Shown: in pieces, positions 19,216-64,000 of the stretch
Numbering within the stretch: the first letter of the stretch is position 1
Layout: the number at the start of each line of letters is the position of its first letter
Source: Bacilli bacterium
Lineage (GTDB): Bacteria > Bacillota_I > Bacilli_A > RF39 > UBA660
DNA length: 64,000 nucleotides
Assembly: GCA_028694645.1 (NCBI GenBank)
Contig: JAQVKM010000004.1
Coordinates: 79,365 to 143,364 of the forward strand
Direction: 5' to 3'
Notes under the pieces: model-generated
What the model was told of the DNA's origin: nothing
Seen by the model: the letters and a program-made list of their open reading frames with translations, nothing else
Databases searched by the model: none
Position numbers and translations under genes: made by a program

Positions 19216-19292
19216 GGGCGATTAGCTCAGTTGGTTAGAGCACCTGCCTTACAAGCAGGGGGTCATAGGTTCGAGTCCTATATCGCCCACCA
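19216..19292 (+). tRNA. tRNA-Val(TAC)
   Basis: Cloverleaf with anticodon loop CTTACAA. CCA is encoded. Confidence 0.9.
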
Positions 19293-19296
19293 TTTT

Positions 19297-19372
<76 letters not shown>

Positions 19373-19379
19373 TTATTTT

Positions 19380-19463
19380 GGAAGGGTAGCGAAGAGGTTA
19401 AACGCGGCAGACTGTAAATCTGTTCCTTCGGGTTCGATGGTTCGAATCCATCTCCTTCCACCA
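19380..19463 (+). tRNA. tRNA-Tyr(GTA)
   Basis: Anticodon loop CTGTAAA. Long variable arm. CCA end. Confidence 0.9.
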
Positions 19464-19475
19464 TAATTTTTTTAT

Positions 19476-19551
19476 TGCCTCGTAGCCAAGTGGTAAGGCA
19501 CCACACTTTGACTGTGGCATTTCGCTAGTTCGAATCTAGCCGAGGCAGCCA
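19476..19551 (+). tRNA. tRNA-Gln(TTG)
   Basis: Anticodon loop CTTTGAC. CCA end. Confidence 0.85.
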
Positions 19552-19576
19552 TTTTGAAATATTTAAATAATAATAT

Positions 19577-19652
19577 GTCTCGTTAGCTCAGCCGGTAGAG
19601 CATCTGACTTTTAATCAGAGGGTCGTGAGTTCGAATCTCGCACGAGACACCA
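19577..19652 (+). tRNA. tRNA-Lys(TTT)
   Basis: Anticodon loop CTTTTAA. CCA end. Confidence 0.9.
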
Positions 19653-19655
19653 GAT

Positions 19656-19744
19656 GCCTGAGTGGCGAAATTGGTAGACGCACAGGACTTAAAATCCTGC
19701 GAGAGTCAAATCTCGTGCCGGTTCAAGTCCGGCCTTAGGCACCA
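19656..19744 (+). tRNA. tRNA-Leu(TAA)
   Basis: Anticodon loop CTTAAAA. Long variable arm. CCA end. Confidence 0.9.
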
Positions 19745-19756
19745 ATATGAATATAA

Positions 19757-19778
19757 TCGAACAAATATGTTCGGTTTT
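19757..19778 (+). terminator. terminator after first tRNA block
   Basis: CGAACAaatatgTTCG stem followed by GTTTT. Confidence 0.5.
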
Positions 19779-19832
19779 ATTTTGTTAATTTTAATAATGA
19801 ATAAAAAAAATATAAAAAATTAATAAAATCTA

Positions 19833-19861
19833 TTGAAAATATATAAAATAACTGATATAAT
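19833..19861 (+). promoter_or_regulatory. promoter TTGAAA-17-TATAAT (extended TGn) for second tRNA block
   Basis: Consensus hexamers ~45 nt upstream of tRNA-Ser. Confidence 0.55.
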
Positions 19862-19908
19862 CATATACGTACTCGTAAATCTTTATATTTTCGAGATTAC
19901 AATTATAT

Positions 19909-19997
19909 GGAGAAATACCCAAGTGGTTGAAGGGTCCGGTCTTGAAAACCGGTAGGTCGGAAACGGCGCTAGGGTTCGAATCCCTATTTCTCCGCCA
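19909..19997 (+). tRNA. tRNA-Ser(TGA)
   Basis: Anticodon loop CTTGAAA. Long variable arm. CCA end. Confidence 0.9.
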
Positions 19998-20005
19998 TCT
20001 AATAT

Positions 20006-20082
<77 letters not shown>

Positions 20083-20085
20083 AAT

Positions 20086-20161
20086 GGTCCCGTAGTGTAG
20101 CGGTTATCACGTCTGCCTGTCACGCAGAAGATCGCGAGTTCGATTCTCGTCGGGACCGCCA
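20086..20161 (+). tRNA. tRNA-Asp(GTC)
   Basis: Anticodon loop CTGTCAC. CCA end. Confidence 0.9.
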
Positions 20162-20170
20162 TTTATTTTT

Positions 20171-20246
20171 GGCTCTGTAGCTCAGTCGGTAGAGCAAGGG
20201 ACTGAAAATCCCTGTGTCGATGGTTCGATTCCATTCGGAGCCACCA
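20171..20246 (+). tRNA. tRNA-Phe(GAA)
   Basis: Anticodon loop CTGAAAA. CCA end. Confidence 0.9.
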
Positions 20247-20357
20247 TTTTATAAGAAAAGAACAATAAGTTCACTAAAAATATATTAAATAAGATTCCAA
20301 TAATGATTGTTGGTTTTTTTATTAAAAAAAATAAATTTAGAAAATTTTAAAAAAATA

Positions 20358-20386
20358 TTGCTAAAACAATAATATTGTGGTAATAT
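20358..20386 (+). promoter_or_regulatory. promoter TTGCTA-17-TAATAT with extended TG for tRNA-Arg/Pro
   Basis: Hexamers at the correct spacing ~40 nt upstream of tRNA-Arg. Confidence 0.5.
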
Positions 20387-20426
20387 TATACTTGTATTTG
20401 TTGAGTTTTCTCAACAATAAAGTATC

Positions 20427-20503
20427 GCGCTCGTAGCTCAGCTGGATAGAGTGTTTGGCTACGAACCAAAAGGTCAGGGGTTCGAATCCCTTCGAGCGCA
20501 CCA
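20427..20503 (+). tRNA. tRNA-Arg(ACG)
   Basis: Anticodon loop CTACGAA. CCA end. Confidence 0.9.
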
Positions 20504-20514
20504 TAATAATTTTT

Positions 20515-20591
20515 CGGGATGTGGCTCAACTTGGTAGAGCACTTGGTTTGGGACCAAGGGGTTGCAGGTTCAAATCCTGTCATCCCGACCA
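20515..20591 (+). tRNA. tRNA-Pro(TGG)
   Basis: Anticodon loop TTTGGGA. CCA end. Confidence 0.9.
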
Positions 20592-50504: not shown

Positions 50505-51711
50505 AAATTTTTTTTGGAATATGATAGGCTCAACATTTAATGCATTTAATTCACTGTTTTTTATGGTTGTTGTAATAAGAATCAATGGCAGTGCTGATGC
50601 TGGTGTTTTTACATATTCATATTCAGTAGCTTGCCTCTTATATTATATTGGTATATATTTTGGAAGAACCTATCAAGTTACAGATACAAAAAAAGATTTC
50701 AGTGATAAAGATTATATATTCAATAGGTATATATCCATTTTTATAATGGTTATAATTTCAATAATATTTGTTGTAATAATGAAATTTGATAATTATAAAT
50801 CTTTAATTTTAATTTTATTAACTATTTATAGGGCAGTTGATGCATTAGCTGAAGTTTATTATGGTATTCTTCATAAAAATGAAAAATTGTATCTAGTTGG
50901 AATTTCTATGACATTAAAATCTTTATGTGGTTTAATATTATTTATTTTGGGTGATATTATATTCAAAAATATAATTTTAGCGTGTATATTTACCATATTA
51001 TTTAATTTAATTATTACAATTTTGAATGACAAAAGAAGGAGCAAAAAATATTTAGAAGAAGGAAATTCAAATTTTAAAAGTATTACAAGCATATATTTAA
51101 AATCATTTTTTGTATTTGCCTTTTCATTCTTGTCAATGTATATAGTGTCTGTTCCAAAATATTCAATGGTTAATTTACCGAATGAAGAACAGGCAATATT
51201 TGGAATAATAATGATGCCGGCAACTTTTGTTAGTTTGTGTGGATATTATATTATTAATCCATATTTAAATAAATTAACAGAATTTTATAAGAATAAAGAT
51301 AAAATAAATTTTGAATTGATTGTAAAAAAAATTTTACTATTTGTATTAGGAATTGGGGTGTTTGCTGAATTATGTGTATTTTCAGTAGCTATACCAATAT
51401 TAAATTTTGTGTTTAAAATAAATTTAAATGACTTCAAATTACAATTAGGAATAATAATTTTAGGTGCTGTTTTCTACACGGCAGGATTGGTATATTCAAA
51501 TGTATTGACAATATTCAGAAAGACCTTTGTTCAATTTATTATTTATGGTATAACTGCACTTGTTGGACTAGCTGTTTCTGTTGTTCTAATTTCTAATTAT
51601 TATCTGTTTGGAGGGACAATGTCATATTTTATTATAATGTCATTGCAATTATTATTGTATACAATAGTAACTAAAAGTATTATGAAAGAGGTTTTTAAAA
51701 ATGATAGATAA
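50494..51711 (+). CDS. Wzx-like oligosaccharide flippase (MOP superfamily)
   Basis: 405 aa with ~12 TM helices. Confidence 0.55.
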
Positions 51712-52285
51712 GATTGACTTAGTATTAAATGAACAAATAAACAATTTGAATGAATTGAAAAATAATAACTATAAAAATAAAATTATGGAAATCAGCAATT
51801 TGATTATTAATGCCATGAAAAATGGTAATAAAATTTTGATAGCTGGTAATGGTGGTTCAGCTGCAGATGCACAACATTTCGCAGCGGAATTAGTTGGAAG
51901 ATTTTGTTTAGAAAGAAAGGGACTACCGGCTATTGCATTAACAACCGATTCTTCTATTCTAACTTGTATGGGTAATGATTATGGATATGATTTTGTCTTT
52001 TCAAGACAAATTGAGGCACTTGGTAAAGCTGGTGATATTTTTATAGGAATATCAACAAGTGGAAATTCTAAAAATATTATTAATGCAACTTTAGAAGCAA
52101 ATAAAAATGGCATTATTTCAATATCTATGACAGGAAAAGATGGTGGAATAATTAAAGAAATAAGTGACTTTAATTTAAATTTTAATTATAAAGAAACAGC
52201 TAGAGTTCAAGAACATCACATAATGTCTATTCATTTAATTTGTGAGGCTGTAGAAAAAAAAATGAAGATATTTCAGGAGGGATAA
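51701..52285 (+). CDS. gmhA: D-sedoheptulose-7-phosphate isomerase
   Basis: SIS domain [19 protein letters not shown]...GISTSGNS. Confidence 0.8.
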
Positions 52286-52286
52286 A

Positions 52287-53516
52287 ATGAAACAAGGAAA
52301 TTATTTATCCAATAATTTTAGAAAAATATATGGTGTATTTCAGAAAAATTTATTCCTAAGAGATTTTAAAAATATTCTTTATTATGTTGATTTAATAATT
52401 CTGTTATTTATTGTTAAACCCAAAAAAATAAAATCACAAAAAAAGAAAATATTGGTTATTTATAATATGGCTTTTGGTGATGGCGTTATTTGGAGATGCA
52501 CATCTGTCCATTTAAACAAATTATACCCAAAGGAAAATTATGAGATAACTTTACTTTGTCAAAAAGGAATAAATAAATTGTATGAGAATGATGATACTTA
52601 CGATCATATTATTCCACTTGATTTTACGAAGGGAACTATTAGTTTGCCAGAGCGAATTAAAAACTTTAAAAAAATAAGAGAAGTATACTATGATTTAGTA
52701 ATTGACCCAATAGGAATAGTTGAGTGTACTACAAATGTTCTAATGACTAGAGCAGCTGTTGGAACAGAAAAAATTGGTTTAATTGATAAAGATGTTATTA
52801 TTCACTGTCCAAGACACATGACAAAAAAAATATATAATAAAATTATTGAAGTCAACGGCAAAGGAGTTTCTTTAATTGATTATTATGCAATATTTTTAAA
52901 GAAATTATCAAATGATAAATTAGATTTAAATGTTGGATATGAAAAAATAAAAACATATCCAACTAAAATAAAATTGCCAGAAAAATATTTTGTTGTATTT
53001 CCAAGTGCAAGTATGAAATTAAAAAGATGGGATATCTCCAAATACGTTGAATTATCTGGAAAAATACACGATAAAACAAAAATGCCAATTGTTTTAGTTG
53101 GTACAGTAGCTGATAAAGAAGCGATAGATCAATTCAAAAAGAATTTAAAAGTTCCCTTTGTTGATTTAGTTCAAAAAACAAATTTAAATGATTATATAAA
53201 TATAATTAAAAAGGCAGAGCTTGTTATAACTAATGACACTAGTGCTTATCATATCGCAGTAATTGAAGAAACCCCGGTTGCTATAATAACTGGTGGCTAT
53301 ACATATGATAGATATGTTGAATACAAATTTGAAAGAATGAATGAATTTAAAAAACCATGTATCATTGTAAATGAAATGAGCTGCTTCAATTGTGGAAATA
53401 GATGTCCTAATTTAAAAAAAGAGAACAGGAATTGGCCATGTTTAGAAAATATAACAGTTGATTTTGCTTGGAAAAAAATAGAAAAAATGATAAACGATGG
53501 AAAAATAGGAGAGTAA
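52287..53516 (+). CDS. glycosyltransferase family 9 (heptosyltransferase-like)
   Basis: C-terminal ITNDTSAYHIAV...ITGG matches the GT9 donor-binding motif. Confidence 0.6.
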   Translation: MKQGNYLSNNFRKIYGVFQKNLFLRDFKNILYYVDLIILLFIVKPKKIKSQKKKILVIYNMAFGDGVIWRCTSVHLNKLYPKENYEITLLCQKGINKLYENDDTYDHIIPLDFTKGTISLPERIKNFKKIREVYYDLVIDPIGIVECTTNVLMTRAAVGTEKIGLIDKDVIIHCPRHMTKKIYNKIIEVNGKGVSLIDYYAIFLKKLSNDKLDLNVGYEKIKTYPTKIKLPEKYFVVFPSASMKLKRWDISKYVELSGKIHDKTKMPIVLVGTVADKEAIDQFKKNLKVPFVDLVQKTNLNDYINIIKKAELVITNDTSAYHIAVIEETPVAIITGGYTYDRYVEYKFERMNEFKKPCIIVNEMSCFNCGNRCPNLKKENRNWPCLENITVDFAWKKIEKMINDGKIGE

Positions 53517-53517
53517 T

Positions 53518-54966
53518 ATGAATGTTGAAAAACTACGCGCAATAAATGATAAAAATATATTAGTTTTCGGTGATTATATGGTAGATAAGTATATTCTTGG
53601 AGATGTTAGCAGAATATCACCAGAAGCACCAGTTCCTGTTATACAAATGAGAGAAGAACAATGTAAAATTGGTGGAGCTGGCAATGTGATAAATAATATT
53701 ATTTCATTAGGTGCAAACGTAAAAGCTCTTGGTTGTGTTGGGGAAGATGAAGCCGGAAACTTCATAATTGATAATTTCAATAAAAATGATATTGATATTT
53801 TGCATTTTCGAAAAATGTCAAATATCAAGACTATATGTAAAACAAGAATTGTATCAAAAAAACAACAATTTTTAAGAATAGATGAGGAAAACATAAAGGA
53901 ATTACCATATGAATACTATGATTATTTAAATCAAAATATAGAAGATATTTTTAGTGAAATAAATCTTTTAATAATATCAGATTATGCTAAAGGAGCAGTT
54001 GTTGAAAAAACATCACAATTATTAATAAGAAAAGCCAAAGAAAAAAATATTCCTATAATTGTGGATCCTAAAGGCAATGACTACAGTAAATATTTTGGAG
54101 CAACAATTGTAACTCCGAATGTTAAAGAATTAAGTGACGTAGTTAAAAAAGAACTTTCAACAGAAGAGTCAATTATTATTGAAAGTGGTAAGTTATGTGA
54201 AAATTTTGGTTTTGACTATGTTATGTTGACGCGATCAGAAAAAGGTATAAGTTCAATTAATAAGGATTACGAGAAAAAAGATTTTCCTGCTGTTGCAAAG
54301 GAAATTATTGATGTTTCTGGAGCTGGAGATACAGTTGTTGCCACCATGGCATTAACAATGACATTGGGATTTTCAATTGAAGAAATGTGTAGAATTGCAA
54401 ATATAGCTGCATCAATCGTTGTATCAAAATTTGGAACTAGCACAGTGAATCTAAATGAATTAGTAAGCAATATATCAATTACAAGAGAGTTTAAATTATT
54501 AACTTCTGAAACAGCTGATTATATAATTGAATACTTAAGAGAAAATGGAAAAAAAATAGTTTTTACAAATGGGTGTTTTGATTTATTACATGCAGGTCAT
54601 TTATCCTCATTTAAAAAAGCCAAAGAATTTGGCGATGTTTTGATTGTTGCAGTCAATAGCGATTTATCTATAAAGAGAATAAAAGGAGAATTACGACCAA
54701 TAATAAAGGAAAAAGATCGTATTGAAATGCTTTGTGCATTAGAATGTATCGATTATGTGATTTTAATGGAAGATGATAATCCAATTGAATTATTAAAAAA
54801 ATTAAAACCAGATGTATCCGTTAAAGGAAAAGATTGGGAGAATAAAAATGTAGTTGAAAAACCAGTAATAGAAGAATATGGTGGAAAAATAGAATTTATA
54901 GATTTAGAATCAGGAATATCTACAACTACAATTATTGAAAGAATATTAAGAGCATATAATGAATAA
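53518..54966 (+). CDS. hldE: bifunctional D-beta-D-heptose 7-phosphate kinase / heptose 1-phosphate adenylyltransferase
   Basis: N-terminal pfkB-like kinase domain. C-terminal cytidylyltransferase-like FTNGCFDLLHAGH. 482 aa. Confidence 0.85.
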   Translation: MNVEKLRAINDKNILVFGDYMVDKYILGDVSRISPEAPVPVIQMREEQCKIGGAGNVINNIISLGANVKALGCVGEDEAGNFIIDNFNKNDIDILHFRKMSNIKTICKTRIVSKKQQFLRIDEENIKELPYEYYDYLNQNIEDIFSEINLLIISDYAKGAVVEKTSQLLIRKAKEKNIPIIVDPKGNDYSKYFGATIVTPNVKELSDVVKKELSTEESIIIESGKLCENFGFDYVMLTRSEKGISSINKDYEKKDFPAVAKEIIDVSGAGDTVVATMALTMTLGFSIEEMCRIANIAASIVVSKFGTSTVNLNELVSNISITREFKLLTSETADYIIEYLRENGKKIVFTNGCFDLLHAGHLSSFKKAKEFGDVLIVAVNSDLSIKRIKGELRPIIKEKDRIEMLCALECIDYVILMEDDNPIELLKKLKPDVSVKGKDWENKNVVEKPVIEEYGGKIEFIDLESGISTTTIIERILRAYNE

Positions 54967-55486
54967 AGTTATATTTTTAGATAGAGATGGAACTATTAAT
55001 TTTGATTCTGGTTATTTACATGAAATAGAAAAATTTAAGTTTTTACCGGGGGTTATTGATGGATTAAAATCTCTTCAAAATATGGGATTTAAGCTTATTA
55101 TTGTTACAAACCAATCTGGAATTGAAAGAGGATTTTTTAATGAATTTGACTATAAAATCTTAACTGATTATATGCTAAATGAATTAGAAAAAGAAGGAAT
55201 TAAAATAGAAAAGGTATATTATTGTCCTCATTTTTTTAGTAATTGTAATTGTCGAAAACCAAAATTAGAACTTTTTTATAAGGCAAAGGATGAATATGAT
55301 ATAGATTTTTCAAAGTCATATGCCATAGGAGATAAGAAAAGGGACTTGTCGATTTGCGAAAAAGAAAAAACAAAAGGAATACTTATTTCCTCTGAATTTG
55401 AGTCAATACAACTACAAGGGAATATAGCATTAGTCAAAAATTTTAAAGAAGCTGTTTTGCTTATACAAAAAAATGAAACAAATTAA
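54959..55486 (+). CDS. gmhB: D-glycero-D-manno-heptose 1,7-bisphosphate phosphatase
   Basis: HAD motif FLDRDGTIN. 175 aa. Confidence 0.8.
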   Translation: MNKVIFLDRDGTINFDSGYLHEIEKFKFLPGVIDGLKSLQNMGFKLIIVTNQSGIERGFFNEFDYKILTDYMLNELEKEGIKIEKVYYCPHFFSNCNCRKPKLELFYKAKDEYDIDFSKSYAIGDKKRDLSICEKEKTKGILISSEFESIQLQGNIALVKNFKEAVLLIQKNETN

Positions 55487-57556: not shown

Positions 57557-58360
57557 ATGAAAAAATTTAGTATAATATTGCTAATAATAATTTTATTATT
57601 TATTACCACAACAAATATTAATGCAAAAAGTTTTATAACATTGCCAAATCAAATAAATTTGGTAGGTAAGAAAATATATCAAGAACAAAACAGATTTATT
57701 AAAATGAAAGAAAAAAACAATTTTTATTTTGAAAACAAAAATTTTTATAATTCAATTACGGGATTGCTAACTACAAATGGAAAAAAAATAATAGATATTT
57801 CCTCACATCAAAAAGATATAAATTGGGATATAACAAGAAGATTTGTTGATGGAGTTATATTAAGAATTGGATATGGCAGTAAAAATATTGATAAAAATTT
57901 TGAACAAAATATAATTGAAATAAAAAAATATAATATTCCTTATGGAATATATTTATATAGTTATGCTGAAAATAGATGGGATACTTTAGAAGAAAATAAA
58001 TTTATATTAAAAATTATAAATGATTATAATTTAAATCCTAAACTAGGAATATACTATGATATAGAAGAGTTTTATATGAACAATCAAAAAATTAAAATAA
58101 GTTCAGAAACTTATGATAAAATAATAGATGAATTTATAAGTTTCTTTCATAATAAAAGATACTTTAATATAGGAATATATACTAATAATAGATTTTATAA
58201 ATATAATATAAATAGAGAATCAAAAAAATATGTAAGATGGATAGCTCAGTACAATTGTTATTTTAATTGGCAAAATAATTTTAAAATTTGGCAGTTTACA
58301 GATAAAGGAGCCATTCCTGGAATAAGTACTAATGTAGATATAAATGTAATGTTTAATTAA
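57557..58360 (+). CDS. GH25-family muramidase (lysozyme), secreted
   Basis: Signal peptide. DISSHQKDINW and GVILRIGYGS match GH25 motifs. Confidence 0.7.
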   Translation: MKKFSIILLIIILLFITTTNINAKSFITLPNQINLVGKKIYQEQNRFIKMKEKNNFYFENKNFYNSITGLLTTNGKKIIDISSHQKDINWDITRRFVDGVILRIGYGSKNIDKNFEQNIIEIKKYNIPYGIYLYSYAENRWDTLEENKFILKIINDYNLNPKLGIYYDIEEFYMNNQKIKISSETYDKIIDEFISFFHNKRYFNIGIYTNNRFYKYNINRESKKYVRWIAQYNCYFNWQNNFKIWQFTDKGAIPGISTNVDINVMFN

Positions 58361-59752: not shown

Positions 59753-59897
59753 TTATCGCTTGATAACTTTTTGTTTGATTAAAAATTATCATTAAAAGTG
59801 TAAAAAAAAGTAAACAAATACATTGTAATGTTTGATAATTAAAACAAAAAGTGTTATACTAAAAATGTATAAGTATTAATGTAAGGTGGTGAAGGTA

Positions 59898-60089
59898 ATG
59901 AAAGAAGCTGCTGGAGAAGCAAATATGACTGTAGTAACTATCATCTTAATAGGGATTATAGTTGCAGTTGTAACACCAATAATCAACAGTATGATGACAA
60001 GCACAGAAAAAAAAGCTTGTTGTATGAACAATGGTGGAACTTGGGAAAATGGTGGATGTGTTGGAGCAAGTTCTGAATGTGAAGAATAA
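59898..60089 (+). CDS. small membrane-anchored Cys-rich peptide (pilin-like?)
   Basis: AGGTGG RBS. 63 aa. Short charged N-term, one TM helix, then C-terminal KKACCMNNGGTWENGGCVGASSECEE. Confidence 0.45.
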   Translation: MKEAAGEANMTVVTIILIGIIVAVVTPIINSMMTSTEKKACCMNNGGTWENGGCVGASSECEE

Positions 60090-60106
60090 TTAAGAGGTGT
60101 TAGATT

Positions 60107-60559
60107 ATGAGACAAGCTATTGGAAGTGTACCAATGTACAATATAATAATGGTTTTTATAGTAATAACTTTCGGTTTCTTGTCTGCAACCTTAAGTTATA
60201 TGAAAGCTTTTAAAGTGAATGGTAGAATTGCAAAAGCATTAGAAAATTATGAAGGCTATAATATTCTTTCAAATAACGAAATAACTGAAACTTTATCTAA
60301 TATAGGATATAAAATAGGAGATGCAAGTAGTTATTCTTGTCCAACAAGAGATAACAAAGCAGCCGTTCAAGCTATAACAGGTAAAAATCATGTTTATTGT
60401 TTGTATGAATTAGATTATTATCAAAATGGAACAACAAAAACAAGATATTTTAATTATGGTATTGTAAGCTATATTTTTATAGATCTTCCTATAATTGGTG
60501 AAACAATAAAAGTTCCAGTTTATTCAGAAACAGAAAAAATATTTAGATTTTCTGCTTAA
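60107..60559 (+). CDS. N-terminally anchored secreted protein, TadE/pseudopilin-like (paralog 1)
   Basis: 150 aa with N-terminal TM helix. Conserved CP.R.N...YC.Y pair shared with the next ORF. Confidence 0.5.
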   Translation: MRQAIGSVPMYNIIMVFIVITFGFLSATLSYMKAFKVNGRIAKALENYEGYNILSNNEITETLSNIGYKIGDASSYSCPTRDNKAAVQAITGKNHVYCLYELDYYQNGTTKTRYFNYGIVSYIFIDLPIIGETIKVPVYSETEKIFRFSA

Positions 60560-60574
60560 TTAGGAGTTGATTAA

Positions 60575-61033
60575 ATGAAAGAATCTATAGGAAATGCCTT
60601 TATAATGGGAATAGTTATAACATTTATAATTATTTTCATGATTTTTTTTGCAAGTTCATTAGCATACACTAAGGCTTTTAAAGCAAAAAACAAAATAGTT
60701 GAAATAATCGAAAAATATGATGATATTTTAAGTCAAAGTGCATCAGAAAATTCTGTTTTAATTAATGCAGTTGAAGCAGAAATAAATGAGACTTTGTCTG
60801 GTATGGGATATCGTATTAGCCCTACTTCTAATAATTGTCCATCTAGAAATAATGTTTCAGCTGTTAGAAAACAAGAAACAGCAAATTATGAATATTGTGT
60901 ATACAAATATACAACAACTAAAGGAAATTATTATGGAGTAACAGCTTATATGTATTTTGAAATTCCTATAATAGGGGTTGGACTTAGATTTCCAGTTTAC
61001 GGAGAAACTAAGATAAGTGGAATTTTAGGTTAG
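60575..61033 (+). CDS. N-terminally anchored secreted protein, TadE/pseudopilin-like (paralog 2)
   Basis: 152 aa. Same architecture and Cys pair as the previous ORF. Confidence 0.5.
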   Translation: MKESIGNAFIMGIVITFIIIFMIFFASSLAYTKAFKAKNKIVEIIEKYDDILSQSASENSVLINAVEAEINETLSGMGYRISPTSNNCPSRNNVSAVRKQETANYEYCVYKYTTTKGNYYGVTAYMYFEIPIIGVGLRFPVYGETKISGILG

Positions 61034-61043
61034 GAGGAATTAG

Positions 61044-62048
61044 ATGAACGTAATTATTGCTAACAAATATCAATCGATGCTAGAAACATTAGAAATTGAT
61101 GTTATAAAAAAACTAGAAGGTGAATTTGAAGTTGAAGATATAATAAATCAATTTCAAAATTTTTTCTTTCAAAGAATGATTTTGGATATCACAGCTATTA
61201 AAGATTATCGTGATATTAAAACCTTACAAAAATTATCTATTTCATTAGATATGGATAAAGTTATATTATTATTAGACGATTCATCTGAGGGAACTTCTAA
61301 TGATTATTTATCAAAATTGATTTCAATGGGAATATATAATTTTACTAAGAACATAGAAGGAATAATGTATTTATATAATAATCCTAATTCATATCGTGAT
61401 GTTGCACATATACAACAATTAGATATGACATCAGGAGAAGAAGTTATTATAGAAAAATATGAACAAGCAGTAGTTGGAACTAGAATTATTGGTATTAAAA
61501 ATGTTACTAAACAGTCTGGTGCAACAACATTATCTTATATGATAAAAAATCAGTTAAAACAAAATTATTCAGTAGTGGCTATAGAAGTAAATAAAAGTGA
61601 CTTTAGATATTTTGGTGATAAATCACTTATATCTACAACTAATTTTGAAATAGGAAATCAAATTTCAAAATATAGTGATAATGATGTTATTATTGTAGAT
61701 ATAAATGATTCAAAACAAGCAGAAGATTTATGTCATGATGTTATTTATTTAGTAGAACCATCTATCATTAAATTAAATAAATTGATGCTAGTTAATAGTG
61801 GAGCATTTAAAGATTTAGCTAAAAGAGATGCAAAAGTAGTTTTAAATCAAAGCTTATTAAATTCAAAAGATGTTTTAGATTTTGAATATGAGTCTGGAGC
61901 TAAAGTATTTTATAATATGCCACCACTTGATGAAAGAGAAAAAAGTATATTCGCTTTAAATTCGTTTTTAGTTAGATTAGGATTTAATAAGCAAAAAGAA
62001 GAACAACAAGAAAAAAAGAAATCGCTTTTAAGCTTATTTAGCAAATAA
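61044..62048 (+). CDS. TadZ/CpaE-like protein: receiver-like N-domain plus degenerate ParA/MinD-like ATPase domain
   Basis: IGIKNVTKQSGATTLS is a degenerate deviant Walker A. The N-terminal ~120 aa have a REC-like pattern. Confidence 0.4.
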   Translation: MNVIIANKYQSMLETLEIDVIKKLEGEFEVEDIINQFQNFFFQRMILDITAIKDYRDIKTLQKLSISLDMDKVILLLDDSSEGTSNDYLSKLISMGIYNFTKNIEGIMYLYNNPNSYRDVAHIQQLDMTSGEEVIIEKYEQAVVGTRIIGIKNVTKQSGATTLSYMIKNQLKQNYSVVAIEVNKSDFRYFGDKSLISTTNFEIGNQISKYSDNDVIIVDINDSKQAEDLCHDVIYLVEPSIIKLNKLMLVNSGAFKDLAKRDAKVVLNQSLLNSKDVLDFEYESGAKVFYNMPPLDEREKSIFALNSFLVRLGFNKQKEEQQEKKKSLLSLFSK

Positions 62049-62124
62049 AAGTTGACTTTTTTTATTAAATAAAGTATTATATGATTGTAATGTTTAATTG
62101 TTTTAAACAAAGAGGAGGTTTATT

Positions 62125-62487
62125 ATGTTAGATATTTTAACTTGTACAGTTGGTGGAGTAGGAATGAGCAATGAAGCTTATGTAATAATTCCAAAAATTA
62201 CTGTTATGGTAGTTAATGTTATTAAAATCGTTATACCAATAATGTTAATAATATTTGGTATGCTTGATTTAGCTAAAGCTGTAATGACTAACGATGAAAA
62301 AGAAATGAAGGGTGCTCAAACAAAATTAATGAAAAGAGCAATCTATGCCGTTTTAGTATTCTTAGTTATCGCAATTGTACAATTATTGTTTGGCGCATTA
62401 GCTGGTTCTGCAGATAGTGATAGTGTTGATGGAAGTACTATTCAAGGATGTATCAGTTGTTTTGTTTCACAAACAAAAGATTGCTAA
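62125..62487 (+). CDS. membrane protein with TM-(D.K..K.A...LMKR)-TM module and Cys-rich tail
   Basis: AGGAGG RBS. The module is shared with the next two ORFs. Confidence 0.45.
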   Translation: MLDILTCTVGGVGMSNEAYVIIPKITVMVVNVIKIVIPIMLIIFGMLDLAKAVMTNDEKEMKGAQTKLMKRAIYAVLVFLVIAIVQLLFGALAGSADSDSVDGSTIQGCISCFVSQTKDC

Positions 62488-62584
62488 TATTAATATAGAA
62501 ATTATATGGAATTTATTCCATATTTTTTTTTATTATGATATAATGTATTTGTAAAAAAATATTTTTTAGCGTGGAGTGATATTT

Positions 62585-63637
62585 ATGAAAAAAATTATGT
62601 ATACATTTATATTAGTACTATTAGGATTTACATCTTTTAGTCATGTGAAAGCAGCGGCAATGTGTTCAACAAGGAATATAGATAGTTCAAAATGGTCTTA
62701 TGTTGAGACGATAACAAATAACAATCAACAATATTCAACAGTTGAAACATCAACTGAAAAAAGGGTTTGTTGTACAACAGGTTCTGGACAGACTTTACAA
62801 TATTATTGTGACAAATATTCTATTGTAGAAAATTATACTGCTCCTGAAGTTGAGGAAGAAATTACTTCCAATGATTTAGGAACATATGATATGCAATGTA
62901 ATACTATTAAGGGATTAGATTCAGAATGGAAATTTGATAAATGTGTTTGGTATTATCCTGCTTCTGCACCTTCTAATAAAGAAGTAATGGGTGTAGAAAA
63001 AGTATACTGTACAGTAGTTGGCTCAGGAGCAACTCAAAGAAGTCAATGTGATTATTTTACTTGGGAAGGGGATTTTGATTTTACTCAAAAACCAAGTAAT
63101 GCTATAGATACACCATTTGGAGCATGTGGAAATGTTGGTAATGATTGGACTTTTAATTATGCTATAACAAGTTCAACAAACATAACAACACAAACAGATA
63201 ATAGTAAAGTATGTTGTAATCAAACAGGAACTGGTGCAGGGACAACATACTTGTGTGATGTTTATGTAGATACTGAATATTATAATGATAAAAATGGTGA
63301 TGAAGATGAAGATATAGATACTTCTGTATGTTCAATTTTAGGTGGAGAAAACAGTGATACAATATTAATTATTAGAGAAATATATAATTATTTTACATGG
63401 ATCATCCCAGTATTAATAGTTGTTTTAAGTATTTTAGATTTTGTTAAAGTAATAGGCTCTGGGGATGACAAAGACTTAAAAGCTGCTGGAAACAATTTAA
63501 TAAAAAGAATTATAGTTGGGGTTGCTTTTTTCCTTGTTCCTTTATTAGTTAAATTATTTATTAATATTAGTGGAATTACTGAAAATATTACTGATGGAGA
63601 TAGTATTGTTGCAATAATAAGTTGCGTTTTAAAATAG
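62585..63637 (+). CDS. secreted Cys-rich repeat protein with C-terminal TM-(DDKDLKAAGNNLIKR)-TM module
   Basis: Signal peptide. Two copies of a VCC..G.G...Y.CD.Y repeat. C-terminal module as in the flanking ORFs. Confidence 0.5.
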   Translation: MKKIMYTFILVLLGFTSFSHVKAAAMCSTRNIDSSKWSYVETITNNNQQYSTVETSTEKRVCCTTGSGQTLQYYCDKYSIVENYTAPEVEEEITSNDLGTYDMQCNTIKGLDSEWKFDKCVWYYPASAPSNKEVMGVEKVYCTVVGSGATQRSQCDYFTWEGDFDFTQKPSNAIDTPFGACGNVGNDWTFNYAITSSTNITTQTDNSKVCCNQTGTGAGTTYLCDVYVDTEYYNDKNGDEDEDIDTSVCSILGGENSDTILIIREIYNYFTWIIPVLIVVLSILDFVKVIGSGDDKDLKAAGNNLIKRIIVGVAFFLVPLLVKLFINISGITENITDGDSIVAIISCVLK

Positions 63638-63648
63638 GAGATGATTAA

Positions 63649-64000
63649 ATGAACGATAAAGTAGGATTAGATATTATTAGATCAATATCTTCTGTTTTAG
63701 ATAAAGCAGTGTATTGGATAATAAGTATTGCATATGAAATAATAACTGAATTAGCACAAATAGATATATTTAAAGATACAACTGTTAGTGATTTTTCAAC
63801 AAGAATATATACTTTAATTGGTTTATTTATGATATTTAAAATATCGTTTGTATTAATCAATTATGTAATTAATCCGGGAAATATAACGGATAAAGAAAAA
63901 GGTGGAGCTAATTTAATCAAAAGAATTGTAATTACTTTTGTACTTATTATAATGGCCCCACAACTTTTTTCATTAATGACAAGAGCACAAAATGCTATAT
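63649..64000 (+). CDS. membrane protein carrying the same TM-(DKEKGGANLIKR)-TM module (3' end beyond window)
   Basis: ORF is open to the window end. GGAG RBS. Confidence 0.45.
   Translation, partial: MNDKVGLDIIRSISSVLDKAVYWIISIAYEIITELAQIDIFKDTTVSDFSTRIYTLIGLFMIFKISFVLINYVINPGNITDKEKGGANLIKRIVITFVLIIMAPQLFSLMTRAQNAI

Follow-up and report, generated by a model that had tools for sequence, protein, structure and literature searches.

In Gram-positive conjugation, PrgF, a hairpin of two transmembrane (TM) helices, is an essential VirB2-like pilin that has been modelled on a pentamer of VirB6 (ter Beek et al., 2025, preprint, 10.64898/2025.12.18.695078), while in Tad pili TadZ is an ATPase of low activity whose Walker A is atypical and which serves as a hub for recruitment (Denise et al., 2019, PMC6668835). 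In Patescibacteria, adhesion requires type IV pili (PMC12102498). A Tad-like filament module and a monoderm type IV secretion system (T4SS) are found together on one replicon in pBMB67 of Bacillus thuringiensis, which has the pAW63/pXO2/pBT9727 backbone, and in the zrk4 plasmid of Mycoplasmatota (CP074574.1), and since both pair them, this combination appears as a recurring plasmid design. Here we describe seven genes (positions 59898-64000) at the end of a 64,000-nucleotide stretch of contig JAQVKM010000004.1 from an uncultured member of the Bacilli, this whole stretch being referred to as the window. These genes form the junction of the same two kinds of machine, a Tad-like pilus set and a conjugation-type T4SS, and constitute the middle of a chromosomal cluster of ∼25 kb that is conserved among uncultured gut-type Bacilli. 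We consider it likely that the window ends mid-way in a chromosomally fixed composite cell-surface machine, built from divergent Tad-like filament genes and a monoderm T4SS. No description of this cluster was found in the searchable literature, including that on RF39 and on T4SS or Tad in this lineage.

The seven open reading frames (ORFs) are closely spaced, consecutive and all on the + strand, as given in an initial annotation of the region, and lie in a chromosome of ∼25% GC. Twelve clustered tRNA genes (+ strand, 19216-20588) show that the window is chromosomal. At the protein level, it is 100% identical to a metagenome-assembled genome that NCBI labels 'Bacilli bacterium' (PHN42_03955 and PHN42_03965). 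The seven ORFs are genuine genes under purifying selection and more than chance ORFs, because the ratio of non-synonymous to synonymous substitution rates (dN/dS) lies at 0.08-0.27 in all but gene 6, where it is 0.54, and because their order is kept in 15 species-level genomes as well as in metagenome contigs. These ratios were obtained against L103, a Logan contig whose gene 4 product is 90% identical to that of the window. L103 also served to read the sequence beyond position 64000, as exact-match look-ups gave no contig extending the window: those with the 353- and 334-residue proteins returned no matching contig, and the one with the 150-residue protein only a Logan contig of 13.9 kb that ends inside gene 4.

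Genes 1 to 3 encode proteins with the layout of pilins. The product of gene 1 (59898-60089, + strand) is a peptide of 63 residues and the candidate major subunit, with a single TM helix (residues 11-29) and four cysteines (Cys41, 42, 54, and 61), as first noticed in the initial annotation. Behind its leader, MKEAAG, come the hydrophobic helix and a short Cys-containing loop at the C-terminus; a Cys pair is usual in the tails of its homologues, and the N-terminus MKEA[AT]GEAN[ML]TV is near-invariant among 18 of them (dN/dS of the gene, 0.18). Gene 2 (60107-60559, +) and gene 3 (60575-61033, +) encode the 150- and 152-residue proteins p150 and p152, candidate minor pilins or pseudopilins that would be TadE/F-like in role. 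They are indeed N-terminally anchored paralogues with a conserved Cys pair: they share 36% identity, tblastn cross-matches of E about 1e-16 and common motifs, and Cys78 and Cys98 are invariant in all 52 members of the family (dN/dS 0.16 for gene 3). Both start with M-[RK]-[EQ]-[AGS]-I-G-[SNT] followed by a TM helix, with Gly6 present in 118 of 120 homologues, so that all three proteins have in common an M-K/R-E/Q-A-x-G leader and a TM helix. The AlphaFold2 (AF2) model of p150 has a lollipop shape, in keeping with the pilin-like arrangement proposed earlier. Class III (prepilin) signals are built in this way, with a short, charged, Gly-ended leader in front of a hydrophobic helix. In the DUF5411 protein of relatives, too, a TM helix follows a similar start, MKESFWG. 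The small pilin-like gene occurs in tandem copies in two genomes (L005, 454-1173; L009, 8764-9116), those of L009 being devoid of Cys, and in L017 (6319-9049) a YfhO glycosyltransferase gene separates it from the p150-like gene.

At the level of protein families, these genes are without a described counterpart. The statement that nothing in the locus matches a known family cleanly holds for genes 1-4, for which Pfam and NCBIfam contain no family, and neither do they for any of the 120 homologues of genes 2 and 3; it does not hold for genes 5-7, which are recognisable T4SS parts. The 63-residue peptide has no match above cut-off in either database and none to Flp_Fap (PF04964) at E ≤ 1. Its conserved N-terminus lacks the G/XXXXEY motif, as already remarked in the initial annotation, there being neither a Glu at +5 nor a Tyr at +6; a Glu sits at +1 instead. 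A Foldseek search with the p150 model gave no significant match, and profiles of p150 and p152 found none in the PDB. We did not detect a prepilin peptidase candidate when screening ORFs of at least 110 codons in the window and 100 loci for the motif G.GD.K, which is a weak test.

Gene 4 (61044-62048, +; 334 residues) is the most conserved of the seven (58-90% identity among relatives, dN/dS 0.08), and its family is large, numbering over 6,000 clusters at 90% identity and about 480 at 50%. Its AF2 model (predicted local distance difference test, pLDDT, 90) comprises a receiver-like N-terminal beta-alpha domain, a disordered linker (residues 127-142), and a P-loop domain of the ParA/MinD class. 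The C-terminal domain matches ParF, ParA, MinD, HypB, FlhG, and BcsQ in Foldseek, and the only PDB entry matched over both domains is 3fkq, the TadZ of E. rectale (E = 5.6e-4). The TadZ/CpaE architecture assigned initially thus stands at the fold level according to the model, the N-terminal domain having been judged within the whole-protein search. Profiles built from 13 and 51 family sequences gave no sequence-level match in PDB or Pfam, and none of the 51 members has a Pfam or NCBIfam family. The degenerate Walker A motif is likewise a property of the family: the P-loop reads K152-N-V-T-K-Q-S-G159-A-T-T, without the Walker lysine, and at this position the 189 homologues have Ala (159), Ser (26) or Thr (4) and never Lys, while Asp219, at the Walker B position, and Glu181 are invariant. 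By its sequence, the family looks one step further than the described TadZ towards a pure pseudo-ATPase, and by analogy gene 4 probably encodes a recruitment hub that binds nucleotide and does not hydrolyse it.

Genes 5 to 7 belong to the other machine. Gene 5 (62125-62487, +) encodes a 120-residue VirB2-like hairpin in which two TM helices flank a charged loop, and gene 6 (62585-63637, +) a protein of ∼350 residues with a signal peptide, a Cys-rich ectodomain, and a C-terminal VirB2-like hairpin; an alternative GTG start of gene 6 at 62576 would give 353 instead of 350 residues. Gene 6 scores above the cut-off of PF18895 (T4SS_pilin; 29.8 versus 26.6 bits, residues 262-328). Searching each ORF with hidden Markov models (HMMs), as suggested earlier, left four genes, not seven, outside any described family. 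Gene 5 stays below the gathering score of PF18895 (16.4 bits), and is homologous to the C-terminus of gene 6 (E = 7e-15 with an HMM of the gene 5 family). Both therefore contain the TM-loop-TM module that the initial annotation attributed to the last three genes, and the VirB6-like gene comes directly after the pair, so that they qualify by sequence as VirB2-like hairpin pilins. The module was undetected in gene 7. That gene 7 might carry a VirB2-like hairpin was considered and rejected, as the module HMM gives no match and its two N-terminal TM helices are those of the VirB6-like protein. Gene 7 (63649-64000, +), cut by the window end, encodes the N-terminal 117 residues of a VirB6/TrbL-like polytopic T4SS protein, which match the NCBIfam family pLS20_p028 below cut-off (E = 3.7e-8); its orthologue in L001, a 470-kb JGI contig, has 686 residues, 47% identity, a weak match to TrbL_4 and one to MMCAP2_0566 (E = 1.6e-8), and that in L103 649 residues. 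To judge from these similarities and from the genes that follow in relatives, genes 5-7 open a monoderm conjugation-type (MPF-FATA-like) T4SS. The gene order, with VirB2-like hairpins beside VirB6, agrees with the pilus model that ter Beek and colleagues put forward for Gram-positive bacteria. The ectodomain of gene 6 (∼230 residues) has only 40% amino acid identity to L103, where the neighbouring proteins have 75-90%, fast evolution of the kind one would anticipate in an exposed surface that serves recognition. Three repeats with the motif [KR]V[CY]C..[TV]G[ST]G......C[DV] can be made out by eye in the ectodomain (62585-63400).

The locus was said to run past the window end, and it does: L103, which has the same glycan genes upstream and the same seven genes, carries on with T4SS genes. 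Gene 7 is followed there by a two-TM protein of 107 residues, a 'TraC-like' protein of 182 residues, a VirB4-type ATPase of 594 residues, an NlpC/P60 hydrolase, two small proteins, and a glucosaminidase. The two-TM protein, 106 or 107 residues long in the cluster, is VirB3-like. VirB4 is split, a 183-residue gene product corresponding to the N-terminal part and the 594-residue one to the remainder of the Mycoplasma-ICE model NF045975 (E = 2e-103), and displays a weak NCBIfam similarity to CedD. In L001 and the 15 species-level genomes, which carry the labels uncultured Bacilli, Bacillales, or Tenericutes, the order recurs as follows: a big surface protein, a DUF5411 protein (E = 1.5e-47 in L001), a CpaB-like protein, an ATPase, proteins of 300 and 261 residues, in some cases YfhO, the 63-residue peptide (pep63), p150, p152, the TadZ-like protein, two T4SS pilins, VirB6, the 106-residue protein, the N-terminal VirB4 part, VirB4, and hydrolases. 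A lipoprotein and VirD4 (PF02534, E = 9e-56, and above the curated cut-off of NF045973) constitute the 3' end, as seen in VirD4-centred loci of more distant relatives. Synteny in relatives, the lack of which would have spoken against a real locus according to the initial annotation, is strongly conserved. In a divergent subgroup (L071 and L073, 260-1200), the VirB6-like gene comes straight after the two p150-like genes; no TadZ-like or VirB2-like gene occupies the usual place, and a pilin-like gene is found further downstream.

The initial annotation also remarked on the lack of TadA, TadB, and TadC. This is correct for the window and for two relatives, L103 and L011, but not for 14 others, in which a CpaB/RcpC-like gene, an ATPase of the PilT/VirB11/CpaF family, and the 300- and 261-residue membrane proteins lie directly upstream of gene 1. 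The ATPase (PF00437, E = 9e-27) is tied in the PDB between CpaF (E = 2e-16) and the VirB11 protein HP0525 (E = 1e-15) and stays below every NCBIfam cut-off, and the two membrane proteins are homologous only to unannotated proteins at the same position on pBMB67. Extending the contig, as recommended earlier and as carried out on relatives, returned VirB4 and VirD4 downstream and the CpaF/VirB11-like ATPase upstream in the 14 loci, and no prepilin peptidase by motif. In the window, a glycan locus fills the place upstream of gene 1 where relatives carry this motor module. Directly upstream, at positions 51701-55486, lies a complete ADP-heptose pathway with a heptosyltransferase, in a genome of Gram-positive type; GmhA-like SIS, GT9, HldE-like PfkB+CTP_transf, and GmhB-like HAD genes were recognised by Pfam matches on an identical Logan contig (L099). 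A secreted GH25 lysozyme-like protein (57557-58360) is encoded between the heptose genes and a GT2/GtrA pair. A relocation of the ATPase module downstream of VirD4 was considered and rejected, as 80 metagenome loci gave no match. The 145-bp gap 5' of gene 1 contains a promoter-like site (59832..59860, +; TTGATA-17-TATACT with an extended TG), for which only its position argues, since such sites are no commoner in the whole region than in shuffled sequence.

We propose the following working model. Genes 1-4 would supply the subunits and the organiser for a Tad-like (type IVc-like) filament that is very divergent. After removal of its leader at Gly6, pep63 would polymerise into a thin filament, which p150, p152, and the DUF5411 protein might prime or cap. 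The CpaF/VirB11-like ATPase would drive this filament on the two membrane proteins found at the platform position, and the TadZ-like pseudo-ATPase would position its assembly. The filament, together with the large surface protein encoded upstream in relatives, could then make and tighten contact with a partner cell. The VirB2-like hairpin pilins of genes 5 and 6 would assemble as a tube on a VirB6-like pentamer, and the resulting channel, powered by VirB4 and fed by VirD4, would move DNA or protein across the envelopes. We infer the assembly of the filament, the cleavage after Gly6, the coupling of the modules, and the substrate and its direction from the gene identities, which are established at the level of folds and HMMs, and from the linkage of the genes.

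A first question is whether such a cluster is mobile. It could be an active integrative and conjugative element (ICE) or an integrated plasmid, with genes 1-4 encoding a mating pilus comparable to the thin type IVb pilus of IncI R64. The T4SS is indeed of the conjugative monoderm type and includes VirD4, and homologous module pairs reside on conjugative plasmids such as pBMB67 with its MobP3 relaxase. R64 and PAPI-1 are precedents for type IV pili that serve as mating pili. The same precedent is cited in PMC12102498. Yet, in the loci examined, neither the space between the modules nor the 10 kb downstream of VirD4 yielded a relaxase or an integrase, no repeat-bounded end was found in the cluster or within this distance, and the TadZ-like protein has no match among 72,556 plasmids. 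The genes downstream of VirD4, encoding rhodanese, DedA, RmuC, RNase R, and SmpB, recur in this order in most of 15 divergent loci, even though RNase R is only 63-73% identical between the genomes. Over these loci, the T4SS proteins are conserved to the same degree (VirB4 75-90%, VirD4 62-73%) as the housekeeping neighbours RmuC (73-81%), RNase R, and SmpB (66-78%). Where the arrangement differs, the neighbours are still housekeeping genes (iPGM, AlaRS, BipA, ProRS). Moreover, identities between genomes range from 30 to 90% and are never near-identical as after a recent transfer. Because of the recurring housekeeping neighbours and because no relaxase or integrase was found nearby, the system looks fixed in the chromosome rather than mobile, and the sequences argue for an old, vertically inherited system. 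An active ICE was rejected on the grounds of the conserved flanks and of the loci examined having neither relaxase nor integrase, and we regard the whole mobile-element explanation as very improbable.

It is also conceivable that genes 1-4 are accessories of the T4SS, namely stalk or adhesin subunits and a VirC1-like ParA positioning factor, assembled without a CpaF-type motor. In the window, L103, and L011, which have no adjacent ATPase module, these genes are still joined to the T4SS and under persistent purifying selection, and they have no sequence similarity to Tad families. However, gene 1 lies directly 3' of the ATPase/platform module in 14 loci, the Gly-ended leader, TM helix, and lollipop model are hallmarks of type IV pilins, and the two-domain architecture of gene 4 matches 3fkq, whereas VirC1 has a single domain. 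In addition, on pBMB67 and zrk4 small proteins with a hydrophobic N-terminus and a ParA-type ATPase adjoin the ATPase genes and not VirB6/VirB4, those of zrk4 being Flp- and TadE-like, those of pBMB67 known only as N-terminally hydrophobic. We thus find the accessory explanation unlikely and favour a Tad-like filament joined to a monoderm T4SS, against which several observations have nevertheless to be set. HMM-level similarity of genes 1-4 to the Flp, TadE, or TadZ families is lacking, their HMMs pick up none of the canonical Tad proteins encoded on zrk4, and the leader has neither Glu+5 nor the EY motif. The 300- and 261-residue membrane proteins have no T2SSF (PF00482), NCBIfam, or PDB match, profiles included, and no paralogy to each other detectable by hhalign. 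In the 60 kb of the window upstream, tblastn revealed no CpaF-like ATPase or platform protein, and the motif search no prepilin peptidase; a motor for genes 1-3 is therefore unseen in this genome. Neither was the motor module found in the 8-9 kb upstream that can be read in L103 and L011. A relaxase may be encoded elsewhere in the genome, and the joint working of the two modules is read from their linkage. A further alternative accepts this anatomy and differs in function only: the apparatus would serve nucleic acid uptake (competence-like or scavenging) or episymbiosis rather than export or conjugation. Precedents are the archaeal Ced importer, ComB of H. pylori, and the relaxase-less T4SS of Patescibacteria, and like the latter the cluster is chromosomal, lineage-wide, and without a relaxase nearby (PMC12102498); by this analogy, the missing relaxase may leave room for such a role. 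The fast-diverging surface part of gene 6 suggests partner recognition, and the weak similarity of VirB4 to CedD is a further point for this alternative. On the other hand, the VirD4 coupling protein is kept and well conserved, and in known systems VirD4 recruits cytoplasmic substrates for export, ComB being without it. No linkage to ComEC or a nuclease was seen at the loci. The retained VirD4 would, by analogy, favour export, and we hold uptake or episymbiosis to be possible but rather doubtful.

The machine kinds are known, and the suggestion that all seven genes form one novel surface-filament or secretion apparatus has to be abandoned, as genes 5-7 are known parts of monoderm T4SS. What appears to be new are four uncatalogued families, a non-canonical leader, a lysine-less TadZ, and a fused arrangement that is fixed in this Bacilli lineage and apparently has no relaxase. 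The families of genes 1-4 are large and without a curated model, and the leader and the lysine-less TadZ provide testable statements on how far the machinery of type IV filaments can diverge. A T4SS and a Tad-like module are here fixed in the chromosome, with no relaxase nearby, in widespread Bacilli of guts and digesters that have no cultured representative. The parallel with Patescibacteria suggests that the co-option of conjugation machines for other cell-to-cell functions may be more general. As a tentative idea, to which we give less than even credence, a whole uncultured lineage of Bacilli could have domesticated a plasmid-type Tad-plus-T4SS conjugation apparatus as a relaxase-less core organelle encoded in the chromosome for contact-dependent uptake or delivery, its filament relying on a prepilin signal not described before (M-K-E-A-x-G, no Glu+5) and on a TadZ that is an obligate pseudo-ATPase. 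If this were true, it would represent the Firmicutes counterpart of the T4SS/T4P (type IV pilus) episymbiosis toolkit of Patescibacteria.

Compared to the canonical Tad/Flp (type IVc) pilus, the cluster has the same parts in the same order, i.e., a Flp-sized pilin, two pseudopilin-like paralogues, and a TadZ-architecture protein, to which relatives add a CpaB-like protein, a CpaF-like ATPase, and two membrane proteins. It differs in that the small pilin has, in place of G/XXXXEY, an M-K-E-A-x-G leader with Glu at +1, in that no Flp_Fap, TadE, T2SSF, or CpaE model is matched, and in that the P-loop is more degenerate than in TadZ as described, with lysine replaced mainly by Ala or Ser family-wide. 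A system predicted in Roseburia, Ruminococcus, and Eubacterium, consisting of CpaF, PilC/GspF, DUF5411, and internalin-like proteins, has in common with the cluster DUF5411, a CpaF-type ATPase, and a large surface protein, but a T4SS is not part of that prediction (Miller et al., 2022, PMC9523054). The T4SS of Patescibacteria (MPF-FATA) is, as in the Bacilli cluster, monoderm-type and fixed in the chromosome, has several VirB2-like paralogues of PF18895, and lacks an associated relaxase (PMC12102498); it belongs to another phylum, whereas in the Bacilli VirD4 always lies next to the T4SS, to which the filament module is physically joined.

The pairing of the two modules can be compared with that on the two plasmids. 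The Tad-like block of pBMB67 encodes a big protein, a 134-residue protein, a SAF/CpaB-like protein, a ParA-type ATPase, a PilT/VirB11-family (T2SS/T4P-type) ATPase, two membrane proteins, and small N-terminally hydrophobic proteins, and its T4SS a split VirB4, TrbL/VirB6, PrgI/VirB3, and a CD1115-type VirD4. Homology to L001 extends over the CpaB-like protein (30% identity, E = 9e-26), the ATPase (2e-34), and the two membrane proteins (5e-10 and 2e-5). No significant similarity was detected for the small proteins and the TadZ-like one, HMMs of genes 1-4 giving only marginal scores (P-loop 12 bits, DUF4320 7 bits). In contrast to the cluster, pBMB67 is mobile and has its own MobP3 relaxase, and its ParA-type ATPase keeps the Walker lysine, has 278 residues without an N-terminal domain, and precedes the motor ATPase. 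In pAW63 this region was annotated only as 'VirB11' (PMC1196294), and the 'VirB11' regions of pAW63/pXO2-type plasmids can now be seen as Tad-like filament modules. On zrk4, a contiguous block contains T4SS_pilin-like, VirB3-like, split VirB4 (29% identity, E = 2e-88), and lipoprotein genes, together with SAF/CpaB, a ParA-type ATPase, CpaF, a T2SSF protein, two Flp pilins, two TadE-like proteins, and a giant protein. This block is plasmid-borne, the order of its modules is reversed, and its pilins are canonical (G/SPSLEY and G/GVIFEY); the small proteins and the ATPase hub have no HMM-level similarity to those of the cluster. The zrk4 Flp pilins (L100, 25185-25886) end in Cys-containing tails that resemble the tail of the 63-residue peptide, with no detectable homology. 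VirB4 homologues are present on many Firmicutes plasmids at 29% identity at most. A separate gene of 227-295 residues lies immediately 5' of a ∼600-residue ATPase on both plasmids (L100, 14062-16764; L101, 13245-15824), and L001 (14998-17333) similarly has a VirB4 N-domain gene of ∼180 residues, weakly similar to the zrk4 gene at the same position, in front of a ∼600-residue ATPase; a two-gene VirB4 would thus be a common trait of this T4SS subgroup. With small subunits and a hub that are beyond HMM detection, the cluster of these Bacilli is a chromosomal, highly diverged version of the pairing found on plasmids.

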